IMG/VR virus record: IMGVR_UViG_3300021411_000006
Span: 1-64,000 of that record
Reading direction: 5' to 3' (one strand)
Origin: a virus
Taxonomy: Duplodnaviria; Caudoviricetes
Length of the DNA stretch: 64,000 bases
The notes under the pieces: model-generated
Told to the model about the DNA's origin: nothing
Databases searched by the model: none
What the model saw: only the letters and a program-made list of their open reading frames with translations
Position numbers and translations under genes: made by a program
Shown here: piece after piece, positions 18,467 through 59,799 of the stretch
Position numbering within the stretch: position 1 is the first letter of the stretch
Layout of the letters: each line of letters starts with the position of its first letter

Positions 18467-18726
18467 CCAAACAGGCTGAACTTGGCCCGCAGATCTTCCG
18501 TAACATCTTCCCGAGTCGCAAACCGCAGTATCTTATATGGTACACCGCTTTTGGAAGTGATTTCATCCGCCAGCTTTATATAGTCCCGGATTCGCTTCTC
18601 ATCCGCGGCAACTAGCGGCATCCAGGTGTCACCAAGAAGGGCACCGATTACCCCTTCATCCCCGTCTTTTGGGTCAATAGCGACAAAGGCAAATACCTCT
18701 TTAATTATAAACGGTCCTGGCATCAC
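18463..18726 (-). CDS. hypothetical protein coupled to the integrase
   Basis: 87 aa; start overlaps the integrase stop. Confidence 0.7.
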   Translation of the reverse strand: MMPGPFIIKEVFAFVAIDPKDGDEGVIGALLGDTWMPLVAADEKRIRDYIKLADEITSKSGVPYKILRFATREDVTEDLRAKFSLFG

Positions 18727-19934
18727 GATACTTTTGATTGTTGAAAGAATGGCAAATTTTGAGCGAAGTCGGCAGCGTCTTCCGGGGTGACCTTATTATA
18801 CTTGGCCAGGGTGCCCGCCACTTTGATCCCGGTCAGCTTCATAACGATGGCATCGGCTACCCCGTTTTTCAGCAGGTTGGTAATAAAGCTCCGGCGCGCG
18901 GTATGGTTGGTAATCATCTCCCACTTTTGTTTGTCTGTATGGACCTTCTTGCCGCCTTTAGTAATACTGTGTATAATCCGTTTGGTGAGGCCAGCGTTTT
19001 TGGCGACTACCTTTATCTCCCGGTTAATTTCAGTGTCGGTGATCTTTGGCGGGAACCCGGCGTACTGTGCAAGAATCTCTTTTACTAGTGGATGAGCTGG
19101 GATAACGGCTTTTGTTTTAGTCTTCTTGCTGACAATAGTAATACGCTCTTCGTCGTAATGTTTGCTCGCCAGTACCAGCAGATCGCTTACGCGGAGACCG
19201 GTATAGCAATCCAGAATAAACCAGTCTCTCGCGACTGCTTCCCGAGGGGTCGCCTTTTGCATGCGGAGCAGTTTTATTTCCATCTCCGACAGCGCGATGG
19301 TTGTCGCCTCTTCAGTAAGCCGCTTAAATTCCTTTGGTAAAGAAAGGCCGCAATGGTGGCAAAGGGTCTTCCAGTTCTTAATGATAGATCCGATATAGTT
19401 GGTCGAAAGCTTTTTGGCCTGGCACCAGAGGATAAATTTTTTGTAGCTGTCCATGTTCACATCCTGAAGGCGCATTTTTGGCATAAACTCTTCCAGCACC
19501 GTTACCTGGAATTTGATACCGCGGATTGTACCAGGAGAATACCTTTCTTCTTTTGGGGTTAATACAATTCCTGCCGTCATTCCTTGTACGATAGTGCGCC
19601 AGCGATCAAACAAGTTTTCTCTCTTTTGTTCCCCAGTCGGTTCGTTTTTTTTTTCAAATAAACGATCCAGCATCTCTTTAAGCCCAGCTTTTGTAACCTC
19701 TTGGTCGGAGGTAGCACATTTATCGGCATAAGCGTCGACGGCCTTAATAACTTTATTCACCCGGCTATTTACGCCCTGTTTGTTACTAACCTGATCCTTT
19801 TTATTCCAGTCTACTGGACGTATGGATATATCGGTATAATATTTTAACTTTCCGTCAATGCACTGGAATAGCAACCATATAGAAGTCTCTGTAGTCGCAT
19901 CGGGCCTTTTAAGGAAGAAAGATACTTTTGCCAT
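18723..19934 (-). CDS. int: tyrosine integrase
   Basis: N-terminal arm-binding region, GLRVSDL (R), KKTK (K), HTARR (HxxR), AKY (Y); ATG at 19934. Confidence 0.95.
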   Translation of the reverse strand: MAKVSFFLKRPDATTETSIWLLFQCIDGKLKYYTDISIRPVDWNKKDQVSNKQGVNSRVNKVIKAVDAYADKCATSDQEVTKAGLKEMLDRLFEKKNEPTGEQKRENLFDRWRTIVQGMTAGIVLTPKEERYSPGTIRGIKFQVTVLEEFMPKMRLQDVNMDSYKKFILWCQAKKLSTNYIGSIIKNWKTLCHHCGLSLPKEFKRLTEEATTIALSEMEIKLLRMQKATPREAVARDWFILDCYTGLRVSDLLVLASKHYDEERITIVSKKTKTKAVIPAHPLVKEILAQYAGFPPKITDTEINREIKVVAKNAGLTKRIIHSITKGGKKVHTDKQKWEMITNHTARRSFITNLLKNGVADAIVMKLTGIKVAGTLAKYNKVTPEDAADFAQNLPFFQQSKVS

Positions 19935-19979
19935 AGTGGGTAATTTAAAGTGTTTCGTTTGGGGTAACTGCTGGGGTAA

Positions 19980-19987
19980 CAAATATA
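19980..19987 (-). promoter_or_regulatory. Bacteroidota -7 promoter element for int, overlapping an arm site
   Basis: TATATTTG on - strand fits TAnnTTTG; no clean -33 seen. Confidence 0.5.
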
Positions 19988-22019: not shown

Positions 22020-22538
22020 TTAAACCAGTCCTGTTTTCTTTGCCACTTTCTTACGGATCATAACGAAGATTCCCAGGGCTATCCCGGCACCCATGCCTAT
22101 GATGATCCAAAGGCGGCGCTGTGCGATCCGCCTCCATTTATCCGACTCTATAGTTTTCTGTTCCAGCATACCGATGGCTTTGCCTCGTTCAATACTGCAC
22201 AGGGATAGTTTCGCCTGGTCCTCCTGGATTACCGTATCGACCCGCAGGATTGTGCGGTTAATAACCTGGCCGGGCATCTGCTGGATCGTTTTGATCCAAA
22301 CTGTGTCACGGGACCGCAGGGTATCACGGATTATGGTGGTCGTGCTGGAGTCGGCCCAAAGAGTGTCGATCACAATGCTGTCTTTGCCTGCCAAAACCCG
22401 CTCTTTTACCGGGTAGGTAATGGCACAGTAAAGAGCGCCGATCTCCGGGAACGCGGTTACTGCCCTCCCGTGCTGTACAGCCGCCTTGCGCTGGTTGTAA
22501 CAGCCGGTAAAGAGTAGTAGGATAAGGAGGTATTTCAT
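22020..22538 (-). CDS. unimolecular spanin (u-spanin)
   Basis: Lipoprotein signal MKYLLILLLFTGC plus C-terminal TM LWIIIGMGAGIALGIFVMI followed by RKK. Confidence 0.8.
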   Translation of the reverse strand: MKYLLILLLFTGCYNQRKAAVQHGRAVTAFPEIGALYCAITYPVKERVLAGKDSIVIDTLWADSSTTTIIRDTLRSRDTVWIKTIQQMPGQVINRTILRVDTVIQEDQAKLSLCSIERGKAIGMLEQKTIESDKWRRIAQRRLWIIIGMGAGIALGIFVMIRKKVAKKTGLV

Positions 22539-22942
22539 ATAGTGGTATCTGGTTTGGGAGCAAGCGGAGTAGGAGTAATAATTTCTCCCTCTCTTTTAGC
22601 TTCTGTTATCACTGGGGATTTTTCGTATCCTTCAGACTTAGCCGGAGCGGCCAATACGGCAAGCAGCCCAATTACCATCTGTAGTATCAACTGTGCAAGC
22701 TGTACGTTTCCGGTTTGTAGCTGGGTAAGATAAGCGGCCAGAGCATTACCAACTAATCCGGCTATTGAAGCCCATTGACCGCGAAGGTTACGGGCTGCAA
22801 AAGATGCCGCGGCAATGATACCTGAAAATACCAGCACCTTTGTACTGCTTTGTCCGCCCTTAATAAGTTCACTGATAGCAAGGGCAATAGCTGATACCAG
22901 GCCAAATATCAACACCTTGTTTTTATTAAAAAACTCTTTCAT
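22535..22942 (-). CDS. putative holin (multi-TM)
   Basis: Three to four hydrophobic helices; lysis cassette position. Confidence 0.65.
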   Translation of the reverse strand: MKEFFNKNKVLIFGLVSAIALAISELIKGGQSSTKVLVFSGIIAAASFAARNLRGQWASIAGLVGNALAAYLTQLQTGNVQLAQLILQMVIGLLAVLAAPAKSEGYEKSPVITEAKREGEIITPTPLAPKPDTTI

Positions 22943-22945
22943 AAT

Positions 22946-23245
22946 TTATGGTTTATTGGTTATTAATTGTATTATATCCCTTAGACCAAACCCTCCGAGT
23001 ATCGACGCTCCGATAAGAAACCAGATCATTCTGTCCCTGAGTTTTTCAAGGTCGCTTATCCGTTTTTCGTGATTAGCAAACTTTTTTATCATACCACCAC
23101 TTTCCGGGTCAAGTTCATTACCGGTTAGCAGTGTCAATATCTCGTCAACCTTGTCACCAATCGTTATTACCTGATTTTGGATCTGATGTATATCCTGGGA
23201 CTGAGCAGTTGCCTGTTCCTGTACCTGTTTTTGAGTTTGTTCCAT
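22946..23245 (-). CDS. coiled-coil protein with C-terminal TM (holin/antiholin-like)
   Basis: Heptad N-terminus then MIWFLIGASILGGFGL. Confidence 0.6.
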   Translation of the reverse strand: MEQTQKQVQEQATAQSQDIHQIQNQVITIGDKVDEILTLLTGNELDPESGGMIKKFANHEKRISDLEKLRDRMIWFLIGASILGGFGLRDIIQLITNKP

Positions 23246-23354: not shown

Positions 23355-23564
23355 TCATTTCTTCTTCGTTGTGTCCAGCTGCCTGTTTGCTTCAAACGCT
23401 ATCTTAGCCCGCAACCCCTCCACTTTTTTAGCCGGTAACTCACCGAGCGCATCATATACTAATTGCATTTCTTCTAAGGAAAAAGTGATTGTTATCTTTT
23501 TTTCGTCCTGTAGTCTAAAAGAGAACAGAGAGAACGCAAATAGCGCGATGATTACTTTTTTCAT
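23355..23564 (-). CDS. small fibre-associated (chaperone-like) protein with signal-peptide-like N-terminus
   Basis: MKKVIIALFAFSLFSF then LEEMQLVYDALGELPAKKVEGLRAKI. Confidence 0.65.
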   Translation of the reverse strand: MKKVIIALFAFSLFSFRLQDEKKITITFSLEEMQLVYDALGELPAKKVEGLRAKIAFEANRQLDTTKKK

Positions 23565-23589
23565 ATACTTTGTTTGTTTAGTTTAAAAA

Positions 23590-24033
23590 TTATTGACCTT
23601 CCTTGTTCATCAATCTGCCCAGCCTCCGGCGGGCTAGATATGTTACTGAGTAAGCCGCCTCAACCGCTGCGATCCTGGATGCTACTATTGGATGAGTAAT
23701 CGCCTGCAAAACATTTTTGGGGTTACCTCCTAAAGCGTCAGCTTCTCCAGCATGCACCTGCCGGATGATCGTGTACCACCTCACCAACATGCCGCCAGGT
23801 ATAGAGTCAAGCGTCACGTTGTCGCTGTTTTGTTTGCCTGCACTTTTTAGCCGGATAAAGCGTAGGTATTTCATCTCTATACTGTCAGTTGAACCAATGT
23901 AATAGCTGGTCATATAGTCAAGATCCCCCGACTTGAATGTAATATTCCGGACGATGGAGGTGTCCAGATTATTTTGCGACTTCGCCAGGGTGTAAGCCAG
24001 TATAAAAGGAATAAAGAGAAATAGCTTTTTCAT
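23590..24033 (-). CDS. exported hypothetical protein (Sec signal peptide)
   Basis: MKKLFLFIPFILAYTLAKS/Q. Confidence 0.8.
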   Translation of the reverse strand: MKKLFLFIPFILAYTLAKSQNNLDTSIVRNITFKSGDLDYMTSYYIGSTDSIEMKYLRFIRLKSAGKQNSDNVTLDSIPGGMLVRWYTIIRQVHAGEADALGGNPKNVLQAITHPIVASRIAAVEAAYSVTYLARRRLGRLMNKEGQ

Positions 24034-24046
24034 TATTGTTATTTTA

Positions 24047-25276
24047 TTAGTTTGCTAATCTTATTTTCATTTTTGAGCCGATCAATACGGTTGATGTTCC
24101 AGACGTTACTTTCAGGTGCTGAATAGAAATTGTAGCCGTTCCTGAACCTCGCGTAGTTACCCAGCCGTGTATATACATCATCCCGCTTTGCCCGGAGGTT
24201 AATAGCCTGGCGGCAGTACCTGTAGCAGAGGCGACAATATTTTCTGTAGTGATCGTCGTTCCGGTTGAATTACCTATTAATAGCGCCTGAACAACAGCAG
24301 CGCCTCCAGTGCCTCCGCCTGTTATTGCGTATTGGCAACCAGTTGTTACCGCAGAGGTGGTTACGTTTAACCAAGCCTCAACTTCGTAGAGCGTGGAGTT
24401 TGACAGCGTTCCGGAGGTAAGGCCAGTGATATCCGTCAGTGCCTGGCCGGTTGTTGTTGCGTTAGATCCGGTTACAGCGAATGTTGTCCAGTTCTCCCGT
24501 GTGTTTTGAGAAACCCAGTTTGTGCCATCGGAAATAAGTGTATTGCCGGTGCCGGTGCCTACTGGCCAGAGTTCTGTCGAGGCTATCCAGTTTGTGCCAT
24601 CGGATACGATTATTTTTCTGGTCGTAGCACTGGCATTCGGAAATGTCGGAGTTGATAATACATAGTTTGTGCCATCGCTAAGTAGCACCTTATTCGCCGT
24701 CGCTCCAGCGGATGTTGGGATCGTCGATGTCGATGGGATGTAATTTGTGCCATTACCAACGATGAACTTTCCTGTAGCCGCTGCCGTACCTATTGTAAAG
24801 CCTGTTGTAAAGTCTGGAGTGGTCGCGCCATTGAATAGTAATACGCCGGTTCCATTCTCGTCCGTTACCGCCGAACGTAAGTTAGCCGATGATGGTGTAG
24901 CTATCCATGTGCCAACATTCGAACCAGGGGTAATCCCTGACCATGTGGTTAAATCACCATCAAAAGCCTGAACATCGGTGCCAATAGTGAGACCGAGATC
25001 CGTTTTGACATTCGTATAACTTCTGTGGGTGACACTGTTGTCAGCGTTCGCCCTTATAAATCCAAGTGCGGACGGATTGGAAATGGTAAAGATCGCAGAA
25101 CCAAGCGTAGTGCCGCCCAGGTTTGCCCGTGCGGTTGCAGGCGTGCCGACATCGGATAAATTATTTGCCACCTGCAAACCCTCTGACTTTACCATTACAG
25201 AGTTTGCAGTAGTAACCCTTTGCGAAAAGGCAAACACTGGAAACAATATTAGGAGGTGGACGAATATTTTTTTCAT
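24047..25276 (-). CDS. tail-fibre-like protein with Sec signal peptide
   Basis: MKKIFVHLLILFPVFAFS/Q; NNLSDV..ATARANLG fibre motif; four (S/N)DGTN(W/Y)-type repeats; T/G/S-rich. Confidence 0.8.
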   Translation of the reverse strand: MKKIFVHLLILFPVFAFSQRVTTANSVMVKSEGLQVANNLSDVGTPATARANLGGTTLGSAIFTISNPSALGFIRANADNSVTHRSYTNVKTDLGLTIGTDVQAFDGDLTTWSGITPGSNVGTWIATPSSANLRSAVTDENGTGVLLFNGATTPDFTTGFTIGTAAATGKFIVGNGTNYIPSTSTIPTSAGATANKVLLSDGTNYVLSTPTFPNASATTRKIIVSDGTNWIASTELWPVGTGTGNTLISDGTNWVSQNTRENWTTFAVTGSNATTTGQALTDITGLTSGTLSNSTLYEVEAWLNVTTSAVTTGCQYAITGGGTGGAAVVQALLIGNSTGTTITTENIVASATGTAARLLTSGQSGMMYIHGWVTTRGSGTATISIQHLKVTSGTSTVLIGSKMKIRLAN

Positions 25277-28200
25277 AAACTGTATGCATTATATTTTAAT
25301 TGATATTGTGCGTTCCAATCAGTAGAACTAACACTGTCAGCAGTAACTCTTATCCTTAAATCTCCTCCGCTGGCATCGACAGTCCATGTTGCTGTTGTCC
25401 AAGTCTCTCTATAATCGGGTTGTTCGTCTACAATCTGTAATACCGTTACCGTTCCGCTATCATTCTTCCAGTGAACAAACTTCTTCCCGGTCAAGCCTTT
25501 AGAATTATTACCCGTCTCTATACCTATAAGTGTCACTACCAAAACGCCTCTTGTTCCCGAAGGGGTAGATATGGTTCCTAGTGTAGTAACTGAAGTTGTA
25601 GTAGTATTTGTCGTAAAATTATCCCAAGCATCCCACCCCTTAATACTTACAACCTCGCTGGTTATATCTATACCAATACCGCCAGTATAAACAGTTCCGG
25701 TAGGGACTACCCAAGTCCCATCTTTACGCAAAAATTGTGTAGTTGTGCTTCCCCCGCTTGCTACTGGCACCAATCCTTTAGCTGAAGTTGAAAACACATC
25801 AAGTAAAGACGTTGCTTGCGTACCCGTCAACTCTTCCATATCCCCCGAACCGCCTGTAATTCTTCCCATAACCCTATTTGTAGCAGAAATGTTTTGCATT
25901 TTAGCATAAGTAACTACATCGTTATCTATTGTCCATACTGCCCCGCTACTGCTTACCGTTATATCTCCTTTGTCTCCATCGCTAACCCCACCAGACAGGC
26001 TTTCTATCTTATCCCGGACGGCGTTTTTGGTAGGAACCTCTAAAGAGCCGTTCCAGGCGGTTGCGTCATAAACCTCATCCGGGACTATAACATCAGATAA
26101 AAATGTAGCAACACCCGTAGAACCGTTTATTGTAAGGGATGCTGTCGAAGTGTTATCAATAGAAAAAATCAAATCTTTTGAATTTGTAAATACAAAGAAC
26201 TTATTAGGAAGTGATGATGCACTTGGATTGGCATAACCCATTCCGCCTGCTCTTACACTACTATTATCTAAAAAATCAAATGAAACAAATCCAGATGCGT
26301 GTAAATTTTGGAATTGCCCAATAGCTCTGGATACCTGGTTTGACTGATATAAAAATTCATACTTAGTTGAAGAGGAACCAGAAACTTGTAAGAGAAAGTC
26401 CCCAGCATCTGAAGAAGTTCCTATACGAATCTCGTCCTCGCTTGCATCTGAAAACAATATTGTTTTTGTAGCTGTGTTAATAGTTACATCGCCTGCTGAA
26501 GTGCTAAATGTATTAAAGATAGCCCCACCGTCTACCTCAATGGTTGCGCTTGCGGTTTGCCCTCCTATATATGGTGTATTGCTGAAAAAAGTTCCTGTAG
26601 CACTAATTTGTTGTGGATAATATACTCCAGCAACAGATAATAGGGTATTAGCAGTTGACGATATTACCAATGTTCCGCAACAAGCGGCAGAGATAGTCCC
26701 GATACCATTTACATTGATTGAAGTTGTTGAAAGCTCCCCTGTGGGGGGGTCATATTTAAAAGCAGCATTATTACTCAATATCCCAGCTGAATCGTAAAGC
26801 ACTCTATAAGTAGCACTACTTGAAATAGTTGTAACACCTTTGGTAAGGCTGGCTGCCGGGATATCCTGCCATGTTGGTACTGACGTTGTTCCCGTCGAAG
26901 TCCAAACCTTGCCGGAAGTTCCAAAAGCTTGCTCCTGGACATCTCCAGATCCGTCGGAGTAAAATGCTCTCCATGCTGTTTGCGAAACAAATTGGGTCAA
27001 GTTTGTAAAGCCTCCGCCACCAGTGGCAGTAAGAACCCCAGCTGTTAAATCCAGGCCTGACCCAATAGTTATATAAGCTACCTTTCCCTGGTCAGTACCG
27101 CCTTGCTTCCAGGCCAGCAAAGTGTTTTCATTCGTGCCAGTCCTTACAGAGTCTATCCATAATTTACCCAAGAAAGGCTTTATTCCTAACGAGTCCCCCC
27201 AAATTTCAATAGACGATGTAGGCGCGCCGGAAGCGGTAGCGTGTTGGTTTCCTAAATGCAAAACGCCACTTCCGAACTGAATTATTTGATTATAATTACT
27301 ATCAACGTTCTGGAAGTATGGGTTTAGTGCTGCCCACCAAATTTCTGAAAAAAGGAACCCACCATTTGATTCTTGATACGAATTAAAATTAGTCGGGCGA
27401 ATCCTCACGTAACTATTCGTTGCAGAGTTTGTAACGTCAAGGTTAAAACCAGCCTGGGCAATAGTTGTATTTACTGTAAGTGTACCGCCGAGTTTTATGC
27501 CGATCTGGTTTGTAGTCGCGCTATCTGGGGTAAGACCGTTGGTTGCGGTAAATGTTTTAATGTTATTGGTGTTCGGTATAACCCACCTGTATCCTGAACC
27601 TACGTTGGAGTTATAGTAAGATCCCAGCGTTTCTATTTTATCCCTTATGGCATCTTTTGTGGGCACTTCATTATTTCCATTCCAGGTGGTTGCGTTATAG
27701 GCATCAGCCGGTACAGTTACATCACCGGTAAATAATCCTTCGCCTACAACATCGAGTGCAACGGTAGGGGTTTGGTTATTGATTCCAAACTTCATTGTTA
27801 ATGCTCCGTTCTTGATATAGGAAAGGTTTGAACCGTCTTCTATTGTAAGTGCAGTACCATTATTTGAACCCGATATGTCCCCTATTGCGTACTGGTTACT
27901 TGGTTTATCTATAGAAAAATAAGTGTCCCCTCCGTTTTTTAACCTGAAATAATACGAGCCTAAGCCAAAAATAGTTGTGTTCTGTAAAAATGTTCCGCCC
28001 AAAGCGATGTCGTTTACGGTCTTGGTAAGACCATTTGATGCGGTCACCGCGCTTCCGCCACTGACATAAGTCATCGTCGGGATAGCATACCTTATTAATG
28101 CCCCATGAAGGTTAGCTGATCCACCTGGGCTAAGTGTATCGTAATAGTTATTGATAAAGAGCCTGGACCCGTCCGTAACGATTTCATTAGGCTGGTCAAA

Positions 28201-29451
28201 AAGAGTGTCTAATAGGAATTTATACTGCTCGTTTGTCTCCGGGTTTAACCGAAGGATAGTCCCCTGGGGATGACTATTGAAACACGCCCATATATAGCTG
28301 CCATAAAAAAAAGTCCCAAAAGAGCCGGTTGCTGTTATGCCGGTCGTTATAATCGTTTCTGACAAGTCGGCTTTTTTGACTTTTGCTAGTGTAGTATTTG
28401 ACTCATTCGCTATCCACAAATAATCTCCGGCAATGGCAAAATCGTCCGTAGTTGTACTGTTGGTTAAAGTTGCTGAGACGACAACAGTTAAAGTCGCGGG
28501 GTCGATTTTATAAACCTTTTTCGTGCCTGACCGGGCTGTTACATATAGATACGTACCATCATACCTTATCGCGTGCATGAAGTTACTCCCGGAAATATAG
28601 GCGGATGTTCTTACATAGGTCGTTAGATTAATCTTGTGAACTCGTCCGGGGTTCCCCCCGTCGACCAAGTACAAAGTATTTATACCATCGGTACACAGGC
28701 TTTGAATTTCGTTGTAATCGGTCTGTATAGTATCAATGATGGTTTGCGCCATTGTCACCGGGTCTATCTCTATCACATAGCTTTCACCAAGACCGTTACC
28801 CTCGTTATTCGCGACTGTGTAGACCTTATCCTTACCGTTTACATATACAATATCACGAGCATCCTGATAGTCGGAAGAGTCGGGGTCGTAAGCAGAGGCA
28901 TCTAGTGTTATTGTATCAATATCAGCTAAGTCATCCGGGTTATTGAACCTGTAAACGTGAGGGGGACTCCACATATCAGAACCCCATATCTTTCCTTTTG
29001 CATAAATCAAACCGTGTATTGTAGCATACGGACGAGGTGTTCTAATAATCTGTTTGTTGTCATCATGGTAAACCAACCCCAAAGATTGAGCTTGGGCATT
29101 ATTATTCCTTCTCCAATCGCTTATCCAGGATTGGCTAACCGAATCGGCGGAGCTTGCACTTCCCAGCGATAATTCGGACCAGTCACTGTTTGTTATTCCA
29201 CCAGCCAGGCTGTAGATCTTCAAACTGTCAGTAACATATACCCACATGCCGACCTTTCTCCGAAGGCTGGTGATCGCGTTCCTTTCCACGATTGTCGATA
29301 CAACCCGGAAACCACCGCGCTGCAAACTGTCGAGATGAGTCGGGTATGATGCAACCCCGATAGTATTCAGGTGGTCAGCTATTACCACCCCTGGCTGCGA
29401 AAAAGCAACTCCAGAAACAAGTAAAAATATAGCGAGAAGTATCTTTTTCAT
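25273..29451 (-). CDS. large fibre/receptor-binding protein (1392 aa) with Sec signal peptide and beta-propeller
   Basis: MKKILLAIFLLVSGVAFS/Q; GGFRVV...ERNAI..RRKVGMWVYV virion-decoration motif; YVTN-like blades; fibre repeats. Confidence 0.85.
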   Translation of the reverse strand: MKKILLAIFLLVSGVAFSQPGVVIADHLNTIGVASYPTHLDSLQRGGFRVVSTIVERNAITSLRRKVGMWVYVTDSLKIYSLAGGITNSDWSELSLGSASSADSVSQSWISDWRRNNNAQAQSLGLVYHDDNKQIIRTPRPYATIHGLIYAKGKIWGSDMWSPPHVYRFNNPDDLADIDTITLDASAYDPDSSDYQDARDIVYVNGKDKVYTVANNEGNGLGESYVIEIDPVTMAQTIIDTIQTDYNEIQSLCTDGINTLYLVDGGNPGRVHKINLTTYVRTSAYISGSNFMHAIRYDGTYLYVTARSGTKKVYKIDPATLTVVVSATLTNSTTTDDFAIAGDYLWIANESNTTLAKVKKADLSETIITTGITATGSFGTFFYGSYIWACFNSHPQGTILRLNPETNEQYKFLLDTLFDQPNEIVTDGSRLFINNYYDTLSPGGSANLHGALIRYAIPTMTYVSGGSAVTASNGLTKTVNDIALGGTFLQNTTIFGLGSYYFRLKNGGDTYFSIDKPSNQYAIGDISGSNNGTALTIEDGSNLSYIKNGALTMKFGINNQTPTVALDVVGEGLFTGDVTVPADAYNATTWNGNNEVPTKDAIRDKIETLGSYYNSNVGSGYRWVIPNTNNIKTFTATNGLTPDSATTNQIGIKLGGTLTVNTTIAQAGFNLDVTNSATNSYVRIRPTNFNSYQESNGGFLFSEIWWAALNPYFQNVDSNYNQIIQFGSGVLHLGNQHATASGAPTSSIEIWGDSLGIKPFLGKLWIDSVRTGTNENTLLAWKQGGTDQGKVAYITIGSGLDLTAGVLTATGGGGFTNLTQFVSQTAWRAFYSDGSGDVQEQAFGTSGKVWTSTGTTSVPTWQDIPAASLTKGVTTISSSATYRVLYDSAGILSNNAAFKYDPPTGELSTTSINVNGIGTISAACCGTLVISSTANTLLSVAGVYYPQQISATGTFFSNTPYIGGQTASATIEVDGGAIFNTFSTSAGDVTINTATKTILFSDASEDEIRIGTSSDAGDFLLQVSGSSSTKYEFLYQSNQVSRAIGQFQNLHASGFVSFDFLDNSSVRAGGMGYANPSASSLPNKFFVFTNSKDLIFSIDNTSTASLTINGSTGVATFLSDVIVPDEVYDATAWNGSLEVPTKNAVRDKIESLSGGVSDGDKGDITVSSSGAVWTIDNDVVTYAKMQNISATNRVMGRITGGSGDMEELTGTQATSLLDVFSTSAKGLVPVASGGSTTTQFLRKDGTWVVPTGTVYTGGIGIDITSEVVSIKGWDAWDNFTTNTTTTSVTTLGTISTPSGTRGVLVVTLIGIETGNNSKGLTGKKFVHWKNDSGTVTVLQIVDEQPDYRETWTTATWTVDASGGDLRIRVTADSVSSTDWNAQYQLKYNAYSL

Positions 29452-30515
29452 TAGTTGACAGAATTACAGTTGACTGTAACGCTTGCGAACACATTATTAG
29501 AAGTGTAGATAAGATAGTTTTGGACATACCCCGAAGCATTCGTAACGGATACGGTCGATGATGTAAACGCCCCTATGCTTTCAATTCCAGAGATTACAAT
29601 ACTGGTCAATGCCCCGTAAGAGCTGGGGTAAGCATAAAAAATATATTTATCTGATCCTGACACTACAATACTGAATGTTGACTTTGCTTTTGAGGTAGTC
29701 AGCTCCCCACCTCCACCAGCGGCGGAAACGATGTCAGCGCTTACAGGTGGGTTAGTTGTTGTATATCCCCAGTACCGCTTAGGATAAAAGGTGAAGGCAA
29801 CCGAGGAAGATGCTGTCTTTGCGTCGCTCGTCGTTACCAGGTTTGTAAAAGAAGTATTAGTATTCCTGGTAACGCTGGTAGATTTTGTTCCCGATACGGT
29901 GCCAGGGGCAGCGGGCTGAGAGAACGACTGGTTTACGCCATCGACATTAATAGTTGATAGCGTGGCGGTCGATGCCTGTCTCCCGCCAGTCCAGTTTAAA
30001 GTAACGGATAACGCAGCGCCCGCACTCATAAGCTCTAAATCAAAAGCCGTGGCAGTCGATGCACTATAGGTTGCGGTAAGCGCCGAGGTTGGTACCTGAC
30101 TGGGATAAAGAAGCGCTTCTATTGTCGAGTTTAACGTAATGGTCCCCAGGTTTACTCCAGTTACAGCAGTGAAATCTCTCGTTATGGGTCTATTACCGTC
30201 GAATGATGTAGATCCTGAACCTGACCATCTTGTTTTTTGTCGAACATATATTGCGCTGTCTTTAATCTGATAAACAAACATCCCTTGCCTGGGAGCAACC
30301 ACATTCGCCGTATCCTGTACGCGTGGCAACCACAAAGCCTTTGTAGTCGCACTATCTCCAAGCTGGAGATGGACTGAAGTATTGGGGACCGTTGCAGCGG
30401 GTATGCCGATACCCATCCGACCGACCCAGGTGGAATAACCATCACGGTTAATGTACTGGGCCTGCGATCCTATCGCAGCAAACAACACTAAAAGTAATAT
30501 GAGTATCTTTTTCAT
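29451..30515 (-). CDS. fibre/decoration protein with Sec signal peptide
   Basis: ATG at 30515, MKKILILLLVLFAAIGSQA/Q; MGIG..P..S..L.L....KALWLPR...GMFVY motif; C-terminal YIFYAYPSSYG.L...VTNASG..Y.IY.SNN domain. Confidence 0.85.
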   Translation of the reverse strand: MKKILILLLVLFAAIGSQAQYINRDGYSTWVGRMGIGIPAATVPNTSVHLQLGDSATTKALWLPRVQDTANVVAPRQGMFVYQIKDSAIYVRQKTRWSGSGSTSFDGNRPITRDFTAVTGVNLGTITLNSTIEALLYPSQVPTSALTATYSASTATAFDLELMSAGAALSVTLNWTGGRQASTATLSTINVDGVNQSFSQPAAPGTVSGTKSTSVTRNTNTSFTNLVTTSDAKTASSSVAFTFYPKRYWGYTTTNPPVSADIVSAAGGGGELTTSKAKSTFSIVVSGSDKYIFYAYPSSYGALTSIVISGIESIGAFTSSTVSVTNASGYVQNYLIYTSNNVFASVTVNCNSVN

Positions 30516-31693
30516 TATACTGTATATTCTATTCGTAACCATTGGTCGGTAAACATTGTGCCTCCGTACTTGAACTTCCTGGGAGCGCTGCCGGTAACCA
30601 CGATAAATTTTCCTGTCGCTGGTGTGTCACCATCAGCGCCACTTGAAAACTGCCGGAGTATTCCGTCCATCCATATATTTGAAATGACCGCACCGTTAAG
30701 CGCGACCAGTGTTACTTCGGTAACATCAGCAGAAAGGGTATAATTATAAAATAGGCTCGTCCCGCCGCCGCCAGTATAAGCACTGAGATCGTATGGGCTT
30801 ATAACAGCGCCGCGGTCAACATCGTGAGCGCAGTGGGTAATGTTTAAGATCTCTTCCAGCAAATCTTCAGCGTCATCAGCATCGCCGATTCGAAGTTTAT
30901 GTATAAGGTGGTCATACCTGGCAGTCGCTTTCTGATATTCGCATTCCAGTGGTCCGCAGGGAGTGCAAACCTGGGCAGCGTCGAGAGCCGCTTTTTGATC
31001 GTTCAGACAGTGGATGATATCATTAACAGTCGGCGGGGTGTCGGCAGTTGTTGCTATTGAGTCGCTGTAGCGGTCAACCAGGGTAAGGAAAGTATAAGTT
31101 GGATGGCTGTAGGAAACGTCACGCTGGTAAGTGATCGCGTACTCGCTATCGTAGTAATTCCCTAAATGTACCAGGTCAAAATCGTCAGCGCTTCCATTCA
31201 GTGTCACCGGAGTACCCATACCGGCACCGATACCAAAATCTGCCTGCCATGCCACAGTATTACTATTCAGCGTCCACCCAGCTTGGGCAAAATTGGTGTT
31301 GTCCCGGTAAAAGAGCGAAGGCGTGAATACGTCAAAATCTTCCTCCAGGTCCAGCGTCTTCCGGGTATAAGACAGAGTGAAAGTTTTTGTTATTGTTGTA
31401 GGCGTGTAATCGGGATGATCGATCTCGTAAGTAATTACATAGTCCCCGCACTGTGGATTACCAACGCTGTTGAGCCGCAAGGCCTGGCTATGTGGCTGTA
31501 ATGCTCCGGAGCTATAAACGATGTCAGTAAAATCTCCGGCGATCTGTACGCCGTCAGGTTGTAGCACAGTAATCTTTCCCACCAGTGAGGCACTAACTCC
31601 GACTGGGTAGTTATCGGGATCAGTGAGAATTATCTGGTTGGTTACATAATTTAATGCAACGTTTAATGCCTGGTATGCTGAAAGATCTGCCAT
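30515..31693 (-). CDS. virion structural protein (no signal peptide); possible fibre adaptor
   Basis: 392 aa, beta-rich, CTPC motif; between capsid genes and fibre cluster. Confidence 0.7.
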   Translation of the reverse strand: MADLSAYQALNVALNYVTNQIILTDPDNYPVGVSASLVGKITVLQPDGVQIAGDFTDIVYSSGALQPHSQALRLNSVGNPQCGDYVITYEIDHPDYTPTTITKTFTLSYTRKTLDLEEDFDVFTPSLFYRDNTNFAQAGWTLNSNTVAWQADFGIGAGMGTPVTLNGSADDFDLVHLGNYYDSEYAITYQRDVSYSHPTYTFLTLVDRYSDSIATTADTPPTVNDIIHCLNDQKAALDAAQVCTPCGPLECEYQKATARYDHLIHKLRIGDADDAEDLLEEILNITHCAHDVDRGAVISPYDLSAYTGGGGTSLFYNYTLSADVTEVTLVALNGAVISNIWMDGILRQFSSGADGDTPATGKFIVVTGSAPRKFKYGGTMFTDQWLRIEYTV

Positions 31694-40216: not shown

Positions 40217-43200
40217 TTAAGGTCGATACATATAAATCCGGTTATCTTTCAAAAACTTAACAAAGTCCGAAAACTCCTGTTCTGTTGCGTCTGCCTTGTA
40301 CAGATCAACGATGGCTTTTTTCGTTTCGTTTGACTGCACGTTAATGATCTGGTTGGCAAACATTTTCTCTTTTGCCGACTGTGCCAGGTTCTTTACATCA
40401 TCCTTTTTAAGCAGCACGATTGCCTTTGATGCTATAGTCTGCATATCACGGCCATCCTGTTCAGTTTGCGGCGCATCCTTGCCCGTGTAAGCCTTGAACG
40501 TATCAAAAATCAGTTTCCGCATATCTACCTCTCCGCCTTTTACTACCGAGTCGGTTTGCGCGTCCAGCGCTTTCTTTAAATCCACATCGATCCCCTGCAA
40601 CCGGATTGCTGCCTTGCGTTCCTGTTCGCTCTGTACTTTATCCAGGGCTTCCCGGTCGCCGCGATCAGTTTCAAAGTAGATACGCCGTAAAGCTGGTATC
40701 ATCGATATGATCTTTTCTTTTGTGGACATCGTGCCGTCATCGTACTGGGGCACCCGGATACCAAGTTTGTTAAGGCTCCACTTGAACATATCACCCAGGG
40801 CCTCTTTGCCGCCCATTTTAAAATTGCGGTCACCGATAACATTGCGCTTTTTAAACTTATCATACGGGTTTATATCATTAACAGCATACTCCCACCACTT
40901 GCTATACAGATCGACTCCGGATTGGTAGTCTGGTAAGCGGTTTACTACGCCGTCGAGGACTCCCCGTATCTTTTGTTTAACGCTGGTCTTTTCGGTCAGA
41001 TTTTGTATGTTATTCCAGGTGAATGTTTCAACGTCGTCTAAAGGAATTTTTAAACCCTTCGCTTTGCCAGTTTCTGTTACGCCAAGTGGGATGAGCATGT
41101 AGTTACTACGGTTATAAGATCCTACTTTTTCAAACCAGTCCTCCAGGTCCTTGCCGAACAAACCGTTTTTAGCTGCGGCAGTCAGCAGCGCGGGGATACC
41201 AATAGTCAGGCCGACATACAACCAATAAGCTCCTTTTCCTTTCGGAGCGGTTGCGATACCAGCATCTGTACGGAGGCCCTGTAAGATCACGGACGAGAAA
41301 GGTATCCAGGAGATGAATTTCTTTGCGCCAAACCTTTCGCTGTAATTCGGGGTGCCGATATAGTTTCTGGTATAGTAAGCAGCTGCCTCCGGACCCATGT
41401 GCTTTTCCAGGATCTTAAACATAGCAACCTTTGTTCTCATCTCTATATGAGAACCTGGCTTGGCCAGAAAATATTCGGGGATTATTAATGCCAGGTCACG
41501 GATCTTGGTCATCAGCGTCCGTCTTTTACTTATACCCAGGTGACCAGAAAGGAAATCGTAGTGAGATAAAAAGTTCGCCATGCCGTTATAATTCGCATCA
41601 AATCCCGCGAACAAAGCGGACTCCGGATTTACAGCGCCGTACTCCAGCATGCGTTTTGCAACACCTGTAGGCTCGTGCTTAAAGAAGCTCTTTGTATCGT
41701 AATAAGATGCCCACCAGGACTGAGCATATTCGGCATGTATTTTTATGAAGTCTCTTTTTTGCAGCGCTCCGTTTGCCGACAGGATAGCTATTGTGTTTTT
41801 TATTGTCCGCTTACTATCTTTTACCGGATTTACAATAAAGATAAAGCCAGGGTTGTACTTTGTCCATGCCATCCGGAGCGGAATTGCGGCAGCAGAAAGC
41901 ATTTCGTTTACCAGTGATACTTTTTCCGGAGGGTGTGCGTTATAAACTTCCGCTATATACTTTTCGGTAATAAAAATCTTATTCTTCCCCCCTTGCTTAT
42001 ACCGGATATATTCCTGGCCAGGTTTAAGTTTTACGCTTGGGTTTCCGCGGAAGTCATAAGCGCAAGCTATGACGCTATCCGGATCAACCTTTTGAAGCGA
42101 CTCTTTACCGATAACAATCGCACGGTTTTTTGATGCCGCCCGCTGAACCATAACCATTTTTACCATCGTCTCCAGGAAAGGATTGGCAATTTCACCAAGT
42201 CCACCCTGTATGCCCAGCATCTGCGCGCTCTGAATCAACTCGGTAATATATTTTACCGGCTTGTAGGTAGCGTAGTTGAATTTATTTTTTTCTGCCTCGT
42301 CCATTTGATCCCGGCTCATTAACCCGGAGTCGTAAGCGTCTTCTATTGTATTAAAACCAAGTTCATAAAAATTGTCAAGGGCCTCCTGTATAACGTCCTG
42401 CTGGGCTGAAGTATATTTATCCAGAACCTTTTGAATCAGATCAAGATTTTGTTCGTCGGTCTGCAAACCAAGTGGGTTGCCTTTCCCCTTCCGTGCTGGC
42501 GACATATTACGCGTGTACTGCACGATAAGACCTACATCATCTAAACTTACTCCAGCATCACGAACCGGTTTTACTGTTTTAGTATTGTAATTATTCAACA
42601 TCAGCGCCGCAGGTGCCTTCCACATTTCCATTTGCTCAAAAGCATTCCTGGTTTCTTCGTATTGGCTTAATTTGTTGCCAGTCTTCGTAGTATCCAGTTT
42701 GTCTCCAAGCGGGCTAAACACTGAAAACATTTCGCGCTTTACCCTGGCCCAAAGTCCTTCGTTGCGCTTCTCAATTTTCAAAAGATCCGCGCGCTTCGCT
42801 TCAGCCTTACGGTAACCTTCAATAGTATTTTTTTCTCTTTCCGCTTTCACTTTCTCCGGATCGGTAAGCAGATCCATCAGGTCCTCGTACACAGCTTTGA
42901 AAGCGGGCTTTTGGTCCAGGTAATTCATAAACGCCTGGAAAAACATGGGAGCTTTTTTCTCCAGCTGGCCAGGGCTGTTAAAGAGCCCGCTTATCATATC
43001 GGCGTATATCTCGACGGAAGATTTACGATACTTCCGAAAGCCTGGGCTTGCGGTCGCTTCATCGTATGGCCTCCAGAGCTTACTAAACCTGTAAGCTTCC
43101 TCGTAGATTTTTCTTTCTTCCCACAGCATTCTTTTATTCATCTCGTCACGAATGCGATCTTTTGCCCTGTCTCTCCAGCCTTCACCTTTTGTAATAACTT

Positions 43201-46200
43201 GTATTTTGTTGCCGGTTGGTATCTTTTCAATCTTGGTAAACTTTTTCAACATGTCATCGATGAGCCCTTTCATGGCTGCGACTACGATCCGTTTTTTATC
43301 CTTCGTGCTGAGTCGCTGAATAAAGTCAAGTAAGGCAGGGTTGTTTATACCAGCCTGCACGTCATTCCAAACGGCCAGCACATCATCAGGAGTAAGTCCG
43401 GTAACCTTCTCTATATATTCATCTTCCTCGGTAATAATATCGTCGTCCGGCTTGGCTTTCTCTTCCGCAGTGATCCGGTCGATATCGGCTTGGGTAAGTG
43501 GGCCCGGTCCACCTGGTTCTTTCGGCAAGAATTTTTCCATGAAAGCCTTTAACGAGGCGATCCTTCCCAGGATATTACCACGACTCAGGGTTTCGTCAGG
43601 AATAAAATCGACAAAGTGGCCAATCTCGTGCGCCATTGTTTTCATCAGGTCGTCGTAGTGCGCCGGGTTAAATAGCTCCCGGTTAAGCACGATCTTTTTA
43701 AGCGCCGGGGAGAAATACCCGAAAGCTGTGGCCAGTTTTTTTATCTCCGGATATTTGCCTTCCGCAATAGTACGGGCCAGCTGTACCAGCTCCGGGAAGT
43801 CTATCGGCATTAAACGGTTATCGGTGGTCGCTTCTTTTGGTATGTCGGAATAGTGGCCAGTCGCGAACTGATCGACATAATCTTCAGCCTCCTTTTTGGA
43901 CATCGCTGTACGCTCCTGGAGAATATCTGTTATATCCTTGTCGGACATACCAGCGGCTTTTTGTTTCTTTACCCACTCTTCCACCTTTGCGGCTTTGTCG
44001 CCGTATTCGGCTTGTGGGTCAAACAAACTGGTTTGTCCTTTCGCCTGCCTGTCTTCATCACGGGATTTCACCTGTAATTTTTCAACAGCAGCTTTTGCTT
44101 CATTCACTTTCAACCTGAGAGGATCAAGAATGTTTTTTGCTTCATCCCTTTTCACACCGAACAAAGACACCTGTTCACTACCGCCAAACATGCCGCCCTG
44201 GGCAGCTTGCGTTTTTGCTATTTTATCTTCGGCATCGCGTAAGTCTTTTTGCGCTTTCGTAAGAAGTGCCTGTGCGGCTTTTAACTCATCCTTTAATCCA
44301 GTATTACTTAATTTATTTGTGCCATATTTTTTCTGGACATCATCCTTTAATATTCCCTGGTCCGCAGCGCTGATATAATCGTATGCGCCTTGTACATCTG
44401 GTCCGCCGCCGACTACATTGATATAATCAAACAGGGCTATATTAGAGACTCCGCAGGTTTCCATCATCGCCCTCAGCTCGCCCGTAACCTCGTTAACTGG
44501 CCTGTTACCGTAAAGGAAAATAGTCGTAGCTGCTGCATGGCCTGCAAAATTTTCCAGCATTTCCTTGCTGTTCATCCCGTCCTTAAAAACATAGTTGCCG
44601 ATAATAGAACTCTTGGCATCCGCGATCAACATGCCCGCTTTTGGAATCGCGGAGAAACGGAGACCGTAAATAACCCCGGCAACTTCTTCGGAATTAAATG
44701 GAGGCTCCGAAATTGGAGCGGATAAAGCTTTCATACCGTCGAGCTTATGTACGGCCAGCGGTTCGCCTTCGGCTGGTTTTTCTTCCCGCTTAAAAATGCC
44801 TTCCTGGTTTCCGTATTTGTCAAGCAACACGTACTCTTCCTTATAAGTATCCATTATAAGGTGTTCCATCTCTATACCAAGCTCGTCCATCATCTTACCA
44901 GTACCCTTCGTTAAGCCTATATCAGCACTACTGGGGGTCATCTGACCGGATGGGTGGTTGTGGATGAGGTATGTTTTTACGGCACTGAACTTTTTAGCAC
45001 CGGCAAGGATCATTTTGCGATCCATAGGGGTTTCCGTAACGGCACCCATAGAAACAAACTGAATGTGGCTGTTACCTTGCTTATCTACATGGACGGCAAA
45101 GCCAAACTCTATTGACTTGTCCTCCAGTAAGCGCATGATGTGCGCTACATCGGCGGCACTTTTTACCGAAGCCGTTCCTGTGAATCGTAGCCCGTGTTCT
45201 TCGCTCCAGACTTGTTCGACTGTGCGGATGTTATGCGAATCGTTGGAAGGTGTTTCGCCTGGCCGTTGTACTGTACCGGAGATGGTCCCGTACTCAGCTG
45301 ATCCGTTGATACTTTCGTATTGTACGGCTTCGCTTTTGCCTTCTTTATTTTTAATGGTTCCTTCATGCTGCGTGGGATTATCAAAATCTAATTTAATCTG
45401 CTCTTTGGCAGAAAGGTCGTTGCCAAAAATATTGTTCAGGTCTTTTCTTGCTTGCTCTTTAAGCGCTTCATCAGCGCCGGGAGCGTTCCCTGCTCTTTGA
45501 GCGCCGCCTTCAGTGCCAGGTCGTCCGCCAGCGTCTCCAGGAATTTCTCCCGGCGCTCCGGTGGTATCGTCTCCAGTGTCTTCGTCGCGGACGGGTTCGC
45601 CGCTATGTTCTGGCGTATCTTCTCTATCAATATCGTCTTGTCCTGGTTCATTTTCTTGGTCATTAAAGTTATCGGAACTTTCGTCATTTTCCAAAACCTC
45701 TTGTTCTGCCATCTCTTTTAGCCACTGATCTTTTTCCGCCTGTGGCATAGCTTCGTAATCAGCGTCTCCGCCTTTATAAGCCTCGTCCGGTGCTACATGC
45801 TGAGATGCAGCGAGTTTTGCTATCGCTTCGCGCCCGTTCCCGGAGCTAAGTGGTATGCCAGTCAGCTCCGCAAACTTGGTTTCTGCCTGGTGGTGTACTT
45901 CGGATTTTACAGTGCCGTCCGGATCGATCCCCCAGGGAAAGCGCATCATAAACTCAGCTACATCATCGGGGGTTACTTCCACACCTTCGCCATGCTGGGA
46001 GATAGAATTTGCGATATCATCGAGGGACCGGCCCTTTTTACTGAAATAGTTTTTTGCGACAGATCCTGAAATAAGATTTTTATCCTTTACTCTTTCGAAA
46101 GACTCCTGCTTTACCTTACCGATCCCTTCAATAGCGATAGCTTGTTCAACCGAAGACAATTCCTGCGGTTGTCGTGGAAGCTGTAACCACGTCGATGCAA

Positions 46201-58938: not shown

Positions 58939-59799
58939 TTACGCTACAGCGAGTAGCTGATCTTGTCTAACGAGCAAGTAATCTTTACCCCAAAAGTTAT
59001 ACTCCTGGGTTGTGTTCCGGTTCACGACTACAGTATCGCCGGGCTTTACACTTAGTGTAGGCTGGCCTTTCAGCGGAGTACCGATAGCTATAAGTTTTGC
59101 CTGTAGCTCGGTTTTCACTTTCTCCCGGACATCGCCATAGATCTCCAGCATGCCGGAATATTCTTTGTCACGCTCAACGCCTCCCCTGGGAGCCTCCAGC
59201 AAAGCATAGCCTCCGATCATTATCATCTCTTCATTACGCTTTGCGATATACGCCATCTGGTAATCTACTTTCCAGTATTCCTCACCGTCAAGGACAAAAG
59301 CATTTCTGTATTGGAAATTCGTCTCGCGGTCTGGCTTATACTTGCGGATAAACTCATTGACATGCTTGGCATCGCCTTCGGTATTGTCGAGGATTATCGC
59401 CTTCCCGTTCTCTTCCCGGAACAGGGCCGCGTCAAACTTTCCGTGCTTTCTATTGCGGCGGATCAGCTGTTTACCGTTCTGCGCGGTCCAGCTGGTGATA
59501 TAGGGATCAAAGGCAGGATCTTCGTAAAATAGTTCTGAAGCGTTGTCGCTTGCTTCCTGGTTGTAGACCACGCGATATGCAAAAGCCAGCTCGTCGCCGG
59601 GCTGCACTTCCATTGGTATTACTATTTTCTGTGGATGATTGCTGAGTCCTCGTGGGGTTGAAAGGACTGTACCCGTAACGGTCGCGTGGTAACCAGGACG
59701 GAATGCGGTATCAATAAAGAGTCCCCCTTCGCTGGTATCCTTAAATTTTTTATCCAGCTGAATAACTATGAAGTCTTCGGGACATACGGGTACGGACAT
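58939..59799 (-). CDS. tandem GroES-like co-chaperonin (two domains plus insertion)
   Basis: N: KDTSEGGLFID...GTVLSTP...VQPGDELAF; C: AKLIAIG...VKPGDTVVV...GKDYLLVRQDQLLAV. Confidence 0.75.
   Translation of the reverse strand: MSVPVCPEDFIVIQLDKKFKDTSEGGLFIDTAFRPGYHATVTGTVLSTPRGLSNHPQKIVIPMEVQPGDELAFAYRVVYNQEASDNASELFYEDPAFDPYITSWTAQNGKQLIRRNRKHGKFDAALFREENGKAIILDNTEGDAKHVNEFIRKYKPDRETNFQYRNAFVLDGEEYWKVDYQMAYIAKRNEEMIMIGGYALLEAPRGGVERDKEYSGMLEIYGDVREKVKTELQAKLIAIGTPLKGQPTLSVKPGDTVVVNRNTTQEYNFWGKDYLLVRQDQLLAVA

Follow-up and report, generated by a model that had tools for sequence, protein, structure and literature searches.

Phage fibre genes with Sec-type leaders: a late-operon cassette that may point to fibre maturation outside the cytoplasm

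According to the textbook account, tailed phages are assembled entirely in the cytoplasm. In the literature searched, no account was found of a tailed phage whose tail fibres are exported. Two described systems share individual features with such proteins. In Bacteroidota, glutamine residues exposed by signal peptide cleavage are cyclised to pyroglutamate (the “Q-rule”; PMC5837995, PMC10653852), and Porphyromonas phages carry Q-rule genes of unknown function that may modify the outer membrane of the host (Matrishin et al. 2023, PMC10367356). Bdellovibrio bacteriovorus, in turn, produces mosaic adhesive trimer (MAT) fibres, phage-fibre-like proteins with a signal peptide, a conserved N-terminal domain and mosaic C-terminal tips (Caulton et al. 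2024, PMC10769870). Here, we describe five consecutive genes at positions 23355-30515 of a tailed phage (Duplodnaviria; Caudoviricetes; IMG/VR record IMGVR_UViG_3300021411_000006), which combine Sec-type leaders with predicted fibre modules; the window analysed comprises the 64,000 nucleotides at bases 1-64000 of a 73,240-bp contig rated complete by CheckV. The locus resembles the Porphyromonas gingivalis prophage genes in its Bacteroidota host and in a predicted signal peptidase I (SPase I) cut that exposes Gln, although the latter genes are not called tail fibres or virion parts in that paper (PMC10367356); MAT fibres differ from it in that they are encoded by chromosomal genes of the predator, which carries them on its own cell surface independently of any virion. 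Export of the five proteins is well supported by the features of their N-termini and is probable, whereas it is possible, at close to even chances, that the exported pool constitutes the virion's own fibres, which would dock after holin action.

The five open reading frames (ORFs) lie next to each other on the minus strand and all start with MKK and a hydrophobic core, as described in the sequence-only reading that preceded this analysis. Leaders were called by classical signal-peptide rules and by conservation. The leader of the 354-aa protein (29451..30515) spans residues 1-19 (30459-30515; MKKILILLLVLFAAIGSQA/Q) with predicted cleavage at SQA/Q, and an extra upstream ATG at 30542 lengthens its n-region only. 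Both the 1392-aa protein (25273..29451; leader at residues 1-18, 29398-29451, MKKILLAIFLLVSGVAFS/Q) and the 409-aa protein (24047..25276; residues 1-18, 25223-25276, MKKIFVHLLILFPVFAFS/Q) have the site AFS/Q, and the 147-aa protein (23590..24033; residues 1-19, 23977-24033, MKKLFLFIPFILAYTLAKS/Q) has AKS/Q, so that four of the five N-termini are confirmed to have Gln directly after a small-x-small site. The fifth, 69-aa protein (23355..23564) begins with MKKVIIALFAFSLFSF followed by RLQDEKK; its core comprises 13 residues and its cleavage site is ambiguous, and its N-terminus may be either a leader or a short membrane anchor. The gene junctions also agree with the earlier description: TAATG overlaps occur at 30515, between the gene of a 392-aa protein and that of the 354-aa protein, and at 29451 (354/1392), and an ATGA overlap at 25273-25276 (1392/409), indicating translational coupling among the first three leader genes and with a leaderless late gene upstream.

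Such leaders are clustered non-randomly in this genome. A rule-based scan of the 114 ORFs called on all 73,240 bp flagged, among the late genes, only four of the five and a neighbouring lipoprotein (22020-22538), and flagged none of the head, portal, terminase, tail and endolysin genes, in agreement with the absence of leaders noted before for head and endolysin genes; the crude gene caller had put an opposite-strand ORF over the 69-aa ORF, the leader of which was read from the sequence directly. A strict Q-rule pattern (K/R, uncharged core, small-x-small, Gln) matches 4 of 231 six-frame ATG ORFs, three of which are adjacent and located in this cassette. The hydrophobic cores are 11-13 residues long and rich in Leu, Ile, Phe and Val, with Kyte-Doolittle 9-residue maxima of 3.0-3.9. 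Other types of N- or C-terminal targeting were considered and rejected: (i) cargo of the type IX secretion system (T9SS), as the five proteins gave no hit of any kind in Pfam or NCBIfam at E<=0.1, including the C-terminal sorting domains Por_Secre_tail / TIGR04183 and type B, in line with the sequence-only reading; (ii) lipoproteins processed by SPase II, as none of the five has a Cys at the cleavage site or close to it; and (iii) signal-arrest-release (SAR) domains, as the cores are Leu/Ile/Phe/Val-rich rather than weakly hydrophobic and Gly/Ala/Ser-rich. By classical rules, the N-termini qualify as real leaders of the SPase I type that follow the Bacteroidota Q-rule. Beyond the window, a small protein with a Q-rule leader (MNKIILAFCLIAATFTASSQ/T) is encoded at 69182-69439 (+), in a non-structural part of the genome.

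The nearest relatives of the five proteins are found in Chitinophagaceae, Sphingobacteriales, Pedobacter and Flavobacteriia assemblies, and the leaders are kept in homologous loci. An exhaustive profile-free search for the 354-aa family returned 1184 cluster representatives at E<=0.001; at least 128 of the best 150 have a leader, which in nearly every case ends in a Q-rule site, while the other members of the best 150 mostly look truncated or have their start called further upstream. Four homologues of the N-terminal domain of the 1392-aa protein, referred to here as anchor B, all have leaders of differing sequence (P0002, P0004, P0005 and P0006), and Gln at position +1 is invariant in all ten aligned anchor-B N-termini, which come from different loci; P0003, which shares a later region of the 1392-aa protein, has an ordinary N-terminus with no leader. 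The 409-aa family is mixed: among the best 120 of its 549 homologues, 55 have a leader, and the N-termini of the other 65 are like those of ordinary phage fibres. A 53%-identical homologue of the 147-aa protein with a leader of its own is located in a related cassette (L003), together with an 84-aa protein that matches the 69-aa protein in position and size and has the leader MKKVLALITAAALLSFSIA/K. Of the conditions that the sequence-only reading had named as refuting its argument, two did not materialise: homologous loci do not lack the leaders, since these are conserved in the homologues, and starts downstream of the leaders are not supported, an alternative start behind the leader having been rejected for want of a conserved Met there in the 1392- and 409-aa families.

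The N-termini may still be something other than export signals, i.e. structural or membrane-active segments of cytoplasmic tail proteins, or artefacts of wrong start codons, and the 69-aa protein with its unclear cleavage site would suit such a view. We regard it as very improbable. Small residues at −3 and −1 and Gln at +1 are kept across hundreds of divergent homologues while the core drifts, a pattern that is hard to explain without export; moreover, cores of 11-13 residues are too short to span a membrane and are not SAR-like, and homologues from non-Bacteroidota contexts simply do not have the leader segment. Three further IMG/VR loci (L035 5771-14989, L037 3889-11124 and L038 7431-14666) contain runs of leader genes around a homologue of the C-terminal domain of the 354-aa protein, with predicted cleavage sites that have no Gln at +1 (e.g., AFG/N, LWG/A); as judged from these sites, their hosts may lie outside Bacteroidota and the trait may be wider than this phylum.

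The mature parts of the proteins bear the marks of fibres, as had been suggested from recognised motifs; the matches to PHROGs, to gp82 of Bacteroides phage SJC03, to BFVD (E 1e-13 to 1e-9) and to the DUF5907/Mtd_N cluster are at the level of domains rather than full-length proteins. The 354-aa protein consists of an N-terminal domain at residues ~20-115 (anchor A) and two conserved immunoglobulin (Ig)-like beta-sandwich domains at residues ~130-354. Its AlphaFold2 model (mean predicted local distance difference test (pLDDT) score 88) displays the leader helix, a linker, a small domain and the two Ig-like sandwiches; BFVD matches reach down to E 2.5e-13 and, where they have a name, are mostly tail proteins, including a ‘tail fiber protein’ of a crAss-like phage, while VIA-align returned only generic Ig/FN3/PKD-like matches. 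In Clostridia phages, homologues of the C-terminal domain that have no leader immediately follow a very long gene that may encode a tape measure.

In the 1392-aa protein, anchor B (motif YPTH..GGFRVV..ERNAI..RRK.GM.VYV) is followed by a region common to the long proteins P0003 and P0004, which, on a reading of its repeats, may be a beta-propeller, and by a long repeat-bearing C-terminal part. Anchor B matches phrog_24134, a ‘virion structural protein’ family (E 1.2e-6), and, without a leader, heads the 1175-aa gp82 of Bacteroides phage SJC03 and a 2013-aa protein of the gut phage MT835639. The core of its model has a pLDDT of ~80-87; the closest fold is the trimerisation domain of collagen XV/XVIII, at modest scores (Z 5.5, Foldseek E 0.1), followed by the N-terminal domains of many tailspikes and fibres, likewise at modest scores, and neither the 354-aa nor the anchor-B model had a match at E<=0.001 when the PDB was searched with Foldseek. 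The 409-aa protein contains the motif NNLSDV..ARANLG and SDGTNW repeats, and its feature match in the atlas (0.93) is to a viral cluster carrying DUF5907 and Mtd_N. Pfam, PHROGs and NCBIfam returned nothing for the 392-, 354-, 147- and 69-aa proteins; the 147-aa protein is possibly a helper of the fibres, and to call the small proteins ‘fibre chaperones’ would be a guess.

Both anchors recur in front of different tips. Proteins headed by anchor A range from 354 to 1625 aa, and their C-termini, among them a GDSL esterase and a ‘Phage_tail_beta’ protein, are unrelated; those headed by anchor B range from 323 to 1564 aa. This combination of a constant N-terminal anchor with an exchangeable tip is the mode of evolution typical of receptor-binding proteins, and the assignment of the mature proteins as fibre or tailspike modules is supported by these domain-level comparisons. 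The Bacteroidota O-glycosylation sequon D(S/T)(A/I/L/V/M/T) occurs 23 times in the six leader-bearing proteins (the five and the lipoprotein) versus 12.1 expected from composition, the lipoprotein alone accounting for 5 of the 23 and the 409-aa protein for none; in the leaderless structural proteins it occurs 18 times versus 28.2 expected. The excess would fit an extracytoplasmic life of the proteins and does not separate the readings weighed below.

The cassette is widespread in other phage loci. These were scanned with a 9-sequence alignment, chosen over an alignment of 71 sequences that was too diverse. In more than 25 loci from metagenomes, metagenome-assembled genomes and IMG/VR, runs of two to seven leader-bearing genes occupy the equivalent place, after structural genes without leaders and usually before lysis genes. 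A gene with a 354-type C-terminal domain is directly followed by an anchor-B gene in seven loci (L002, L003, L004, L006, L009, L012 and L014), and in L004 a 444-aa leader-bearing protein (P0013, 10001-11335) fuses an anchor-B-like N-terminal domain to a 354-type C-terminal domain, i.e., two modules that are separate, adjacent genes in the window. The tail modules upstream vary widely: some loci are podovirus-like, the module of L006 is clearly that of a siphovirus, comprising capsid, connectors, major tail protein and a long gene that may encode a tape measure, and in L002 (6670-9785) and L003 (1065-4201) the cassette lies directly behind a homologue of the terminase large subunit rather than a capsid or tail gene.

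The gene immediately upstream of the cassette (30515..31693, minus strand), the stop codon of which overlaps the start of the 354-aa gene, encodes the 392-aa late protein, which has no leader and is rich in Ig-like beta structure. An atlas search gave no usable relative of this protein. In L039 and L040, close relatives of the window phage, homologues with 42-43% identity directly precede leader-bearing anchor-A genes with different tips, which makes the 392-aa protein the best candidate for a docking partner on the virion side. Anchor A is inherited together with the leaderless 392-aa gene, which counts for a virion appendage.

Cultured phages of Cellulophaga provide a link to the virion by analogy. 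In phi18:3 (NC_021794.1), gp085, gp086 and gp087 have MKK-type leaders, are encoded just before the lysis genes and are annotated as virion or tail proteins ‘based on experimental MS/MS proteomics analysis’ (MS/MS, tandem mass spectrometry). The siphovirus phi10:1 (NC_021802.1) has consecutive leader-bearing proteins with the same MS/MS note (gp091, gp092, the ‘pectate lyase’ gp093 and the ‘tail fiber’ gp094), gp095 is a fifth leader-bearing protein, and phi46:3 has five leader-bearing genes in succession. PHROGs place the Cellulophaga leader proteins in tail, tail-fibre, virion-structural or pectate-lyase families. They have no detectable sequence similarity to the five proteins of the window, and the argument from Cellulophaga therefore rests on architecture and position. 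A match to a tyrosine integrase is present in phi18:3 and phi46:3 and was not found in phi10:1, so the leader trait is not restricted to phages with an integrase. The first 56-70 residues of phi18:3 gp087, comprising the leader and ~40 further residues, are 59-89% identical across podoviruses and siphoviruses with differing C-termini; this type of N-terminus (L021 9905-10100) occurs in 32 other Cellulophaga phage records with genomes of 42-76 kb from different families, including phi13:2, Nekkels, Ingeline, phi10:1, phi19:1, phi19:3 and phi46:3.

These observations could be combined into the following route of virion completion. The five genes would form the distal end of the late operon and encode host-recognition appendages along with two small accessory proteins, all of them Sec precursors. 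The precursors would cross the inner membrane, where SPase I would cut after the small-x-small motif, leaving an N-terminal Gln to be cyclised to pyroglutamate. Folding and oligomerisation of the fibres would take place in the periplasm, where O-glycosylation by the host is also possible. Heads and tail cores, in contrast, would be built in the cytoplasm and would meet the fibres only once the holin opens the inner membrane. The conserved N-terminal anchor domains would then mediate docking of the fibres, possibly with the 354-aa protein attached to the leaderless 392-aa protein and itself supporting the 1392-aa fibre. Extended to Bacteroidota phages more broadly, podovirus-like and siphovirus-like and including those of Cellulophaga, extracytoplasmic maturation of fibres with mounting after holin action as the final step of assembly is a tentative proposal.

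The sequence-only reading had put forward this export-then-dock scheme. Its foundations hold, in that the leaders are real by classical rules and conserved, the modules are of fibre type and the genes occupy a late-operon position, whereas presence in the virion is documented for the Cellulophaga proteins, which are not homologous to those of the window. True virion appendages are favoured by the fibre-type modules, the coupling to the late operon, the anchor-and-tip evolution and the MS/MS annotations taken together; the leaderless homologues in SJC03, MT835639 and Clostridia phages, which are ordinary tail proteins, likewise count for fibres. Several points weigh on the other side. The MS/MS evidence concerns proteins without detectable similarity to those of the window, co-purification of abundant exported proteins with virions may account for it, and the annotations bear on virion association rather than on whether the virion pool had been exported. 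The shared leader with ~40 residues in Cellulophaga phages would fit an address for the host envelope as well as a virion anchor. The Flavobacterium elemo phages, which are closer cultured relatives by portal, have leaderless fibres, and those of Maribacter phage Colly_1 are leaderless as well. By our own reasoning, docking between holin action and rupture of the outer membrane would require fast kinetics, the weak point of the scheme, and the leaderless 1251-aa tail protein encoded elsewhere in the late block could itself recognise the host.

Some of these points would be accommodated if, along the lines of the alternative offered by the sequence-only reading, the exported proteins were accessory factors and not virion parts. 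In the periplasm or envelope, during late infection or in lysogens, they would attach to the receptor glycan from the inside, cover it or cleave it. This could exclude superinfecting phages, keep progeny from re-adsorbing to debris or amount to a MAT-like role as adhesin, and detection in virion preparations would be due to co-purification. A Sec leader by itself delivers no further than the periplasm while particle assembly is cytoplasmic, the cassette is portable, being found after tail modules of very different kinds and even behind a terminase homologue (L002, L003), leader plus ~40 residues are common to different virion types in Cellulophaga phages, the window phage encodes an integrase (18723-19982), and precedents exist both for fibres with leader and conserved N-terminal domain on a cell surface (MAT; PMC10769870) and for phage Q-rule genes read as envelope modifiers (Porphyromonas; PMC10367356). 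We nevertheless consider this account unlikely, since the MS/MS virion annotation is attached to every one of the seven leader-bearing proteins examined in the two cultured phages, and within the stretches examined MS/MS labels were confined to genes of the structural and lysis blocks. Translational coupling to late structural genes, co-inheritance of anchor A with a leaderless gene of the structural module and the integrase-free appearance of phi10:1 point in the same direction, and a route across the outer membrane is not visible in the five proteins, which have neither a T9SS domain nor a lipobox. Conserved leaders and virion annotations could also be reconciled by two pools from one gene: a non-exported part, with its leader retained or otherwise trimmed, would be mounted on particles in the cytoplasm, and the exported part would serve as free depolymerase or receptor blocker. 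Many phages do release free depolymerase besides the virion-bound form. This division is improbable, however, as no conserved internal start lies behind the leaders and Leu/Ile/Phe-rich leaders on many fibre copies would seem awkward for a soluble particle. The preferred reading thus remains that of exported virion fibres that dock after holin action, at the tentative level given above.

The remainder of the late block, also on the minus strand, provides the context of the cassette. It begins with several genes matching PHROG ‘virion structural protein’ families, one of which encodes the 1251-aa protein, and continues with genes for 197-, 521- and 3064-aa proteins, a 191-aa protein, the large terminase, the portal, a scaffold-like protein, a 444-aa capsid protein and proteins of 295 and 392 aa, before it ends with the five leader-bearing genes, small membrane proteins, the lipoprotein with a C-terminal membrane helix and the endolysin. 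The terminase (32% identity) and portal (23%) establish a distant link to Cellulophaga phi18:3 and phi46:3 and to Flavobacterium elemo phages; the capsid protein found no match by tblastn against cultured phages or by a pattern scan of IMG/VR. On the lysis side, at 22020..23245 on the minus strand, proteins of 99, 135 and 172 aa follow the cassette, none of which has a family match in Pfam or PHROGs. As characterised from sequence, the 99-aa protein has a C-terminal hydrophobic segment and the 135-aa protein is multi-hydrophobic and holin-like. The 172-aa lipoprotein (22020-22538, minus strand) has the lipobox LFTGC and a C-terminal membrane helix, a layout that is like that of a unimolecular spanin, and contains 5 of the O-glycosylation sequons versus 0.4 expected. 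The endolysin at 21113-21694 matches phrog_1259.

Two other late proteins deserve mention. A 286-aa protein (58939-59799, minus strand) has a C-terminal GroES/Cpn10 domain (Pfam E 5e-10), and GroES-like proteins beside packaging genes are also found in the Cellulophaga and Flavobacterium relatives. The 3064-aa protein (40217-49411, minus strand), the sole match of which is to a RadC/JAB-like ‘DNA repair protein’ PHROG at residues 1417-1520, is probably a giant ejected or internal protein.

If fibres of this type do mature outside the cytoplasm, completion of the virion would depend on host export, signal peptidase and the timing of lysis, and the fibres could carry pyroglutamate, O-glycans or disulfides, which may shape their stability and the host range. 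Annotation pipelines in which a signal peptide counts against a role in the virion would go wrong, and recombinant receptor-binding proteins or depolymerases of Bacteroidota phages might have to be expressed in the periplasm. Direct testing of fibre export is possible with phi18:3 and phi10:1 in cultured Cellulophaga baltica.

In classical systems, late attachment of appendages is well established: P22 gp9 tailspikes and T4 long tail fibres join the finished particle last, without energy input and also in vitro, which renders docking after export chemically plausible; unlike the proteins described here, they have no leaders and assemble in the cytoplasm. Exported phage proteins encoded beside tail or receptor-binding genes are likewise familiar, namely Lom and Bor of lambda and Llp of T5. 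Pantoea WceF is reported to be an exported tailspike-like enzyme (PMC7949094), a case of a tailspike fold working outside the cytoplasm. All four differ from the window cassette in being single small envelope proteins or a bacterial enzyme rather than a block of anchor-bearing fibre genes. As to phi18:3 and phi10:1, their records leave the leaders unmentioned and annotate the proteins as virion parts by MS/MS, whereas the proteins of the window are known from sequence alone. Both phages nevertheless display the same arrangement as the window: runs of three to five fibre, tailspike or pectate-lyase-like genes just before the lysis genes, with MKK-type leaders and small-x-small/Gln-type ends (e.g., GYSQ/V, SAQ/T, NAQ/T).

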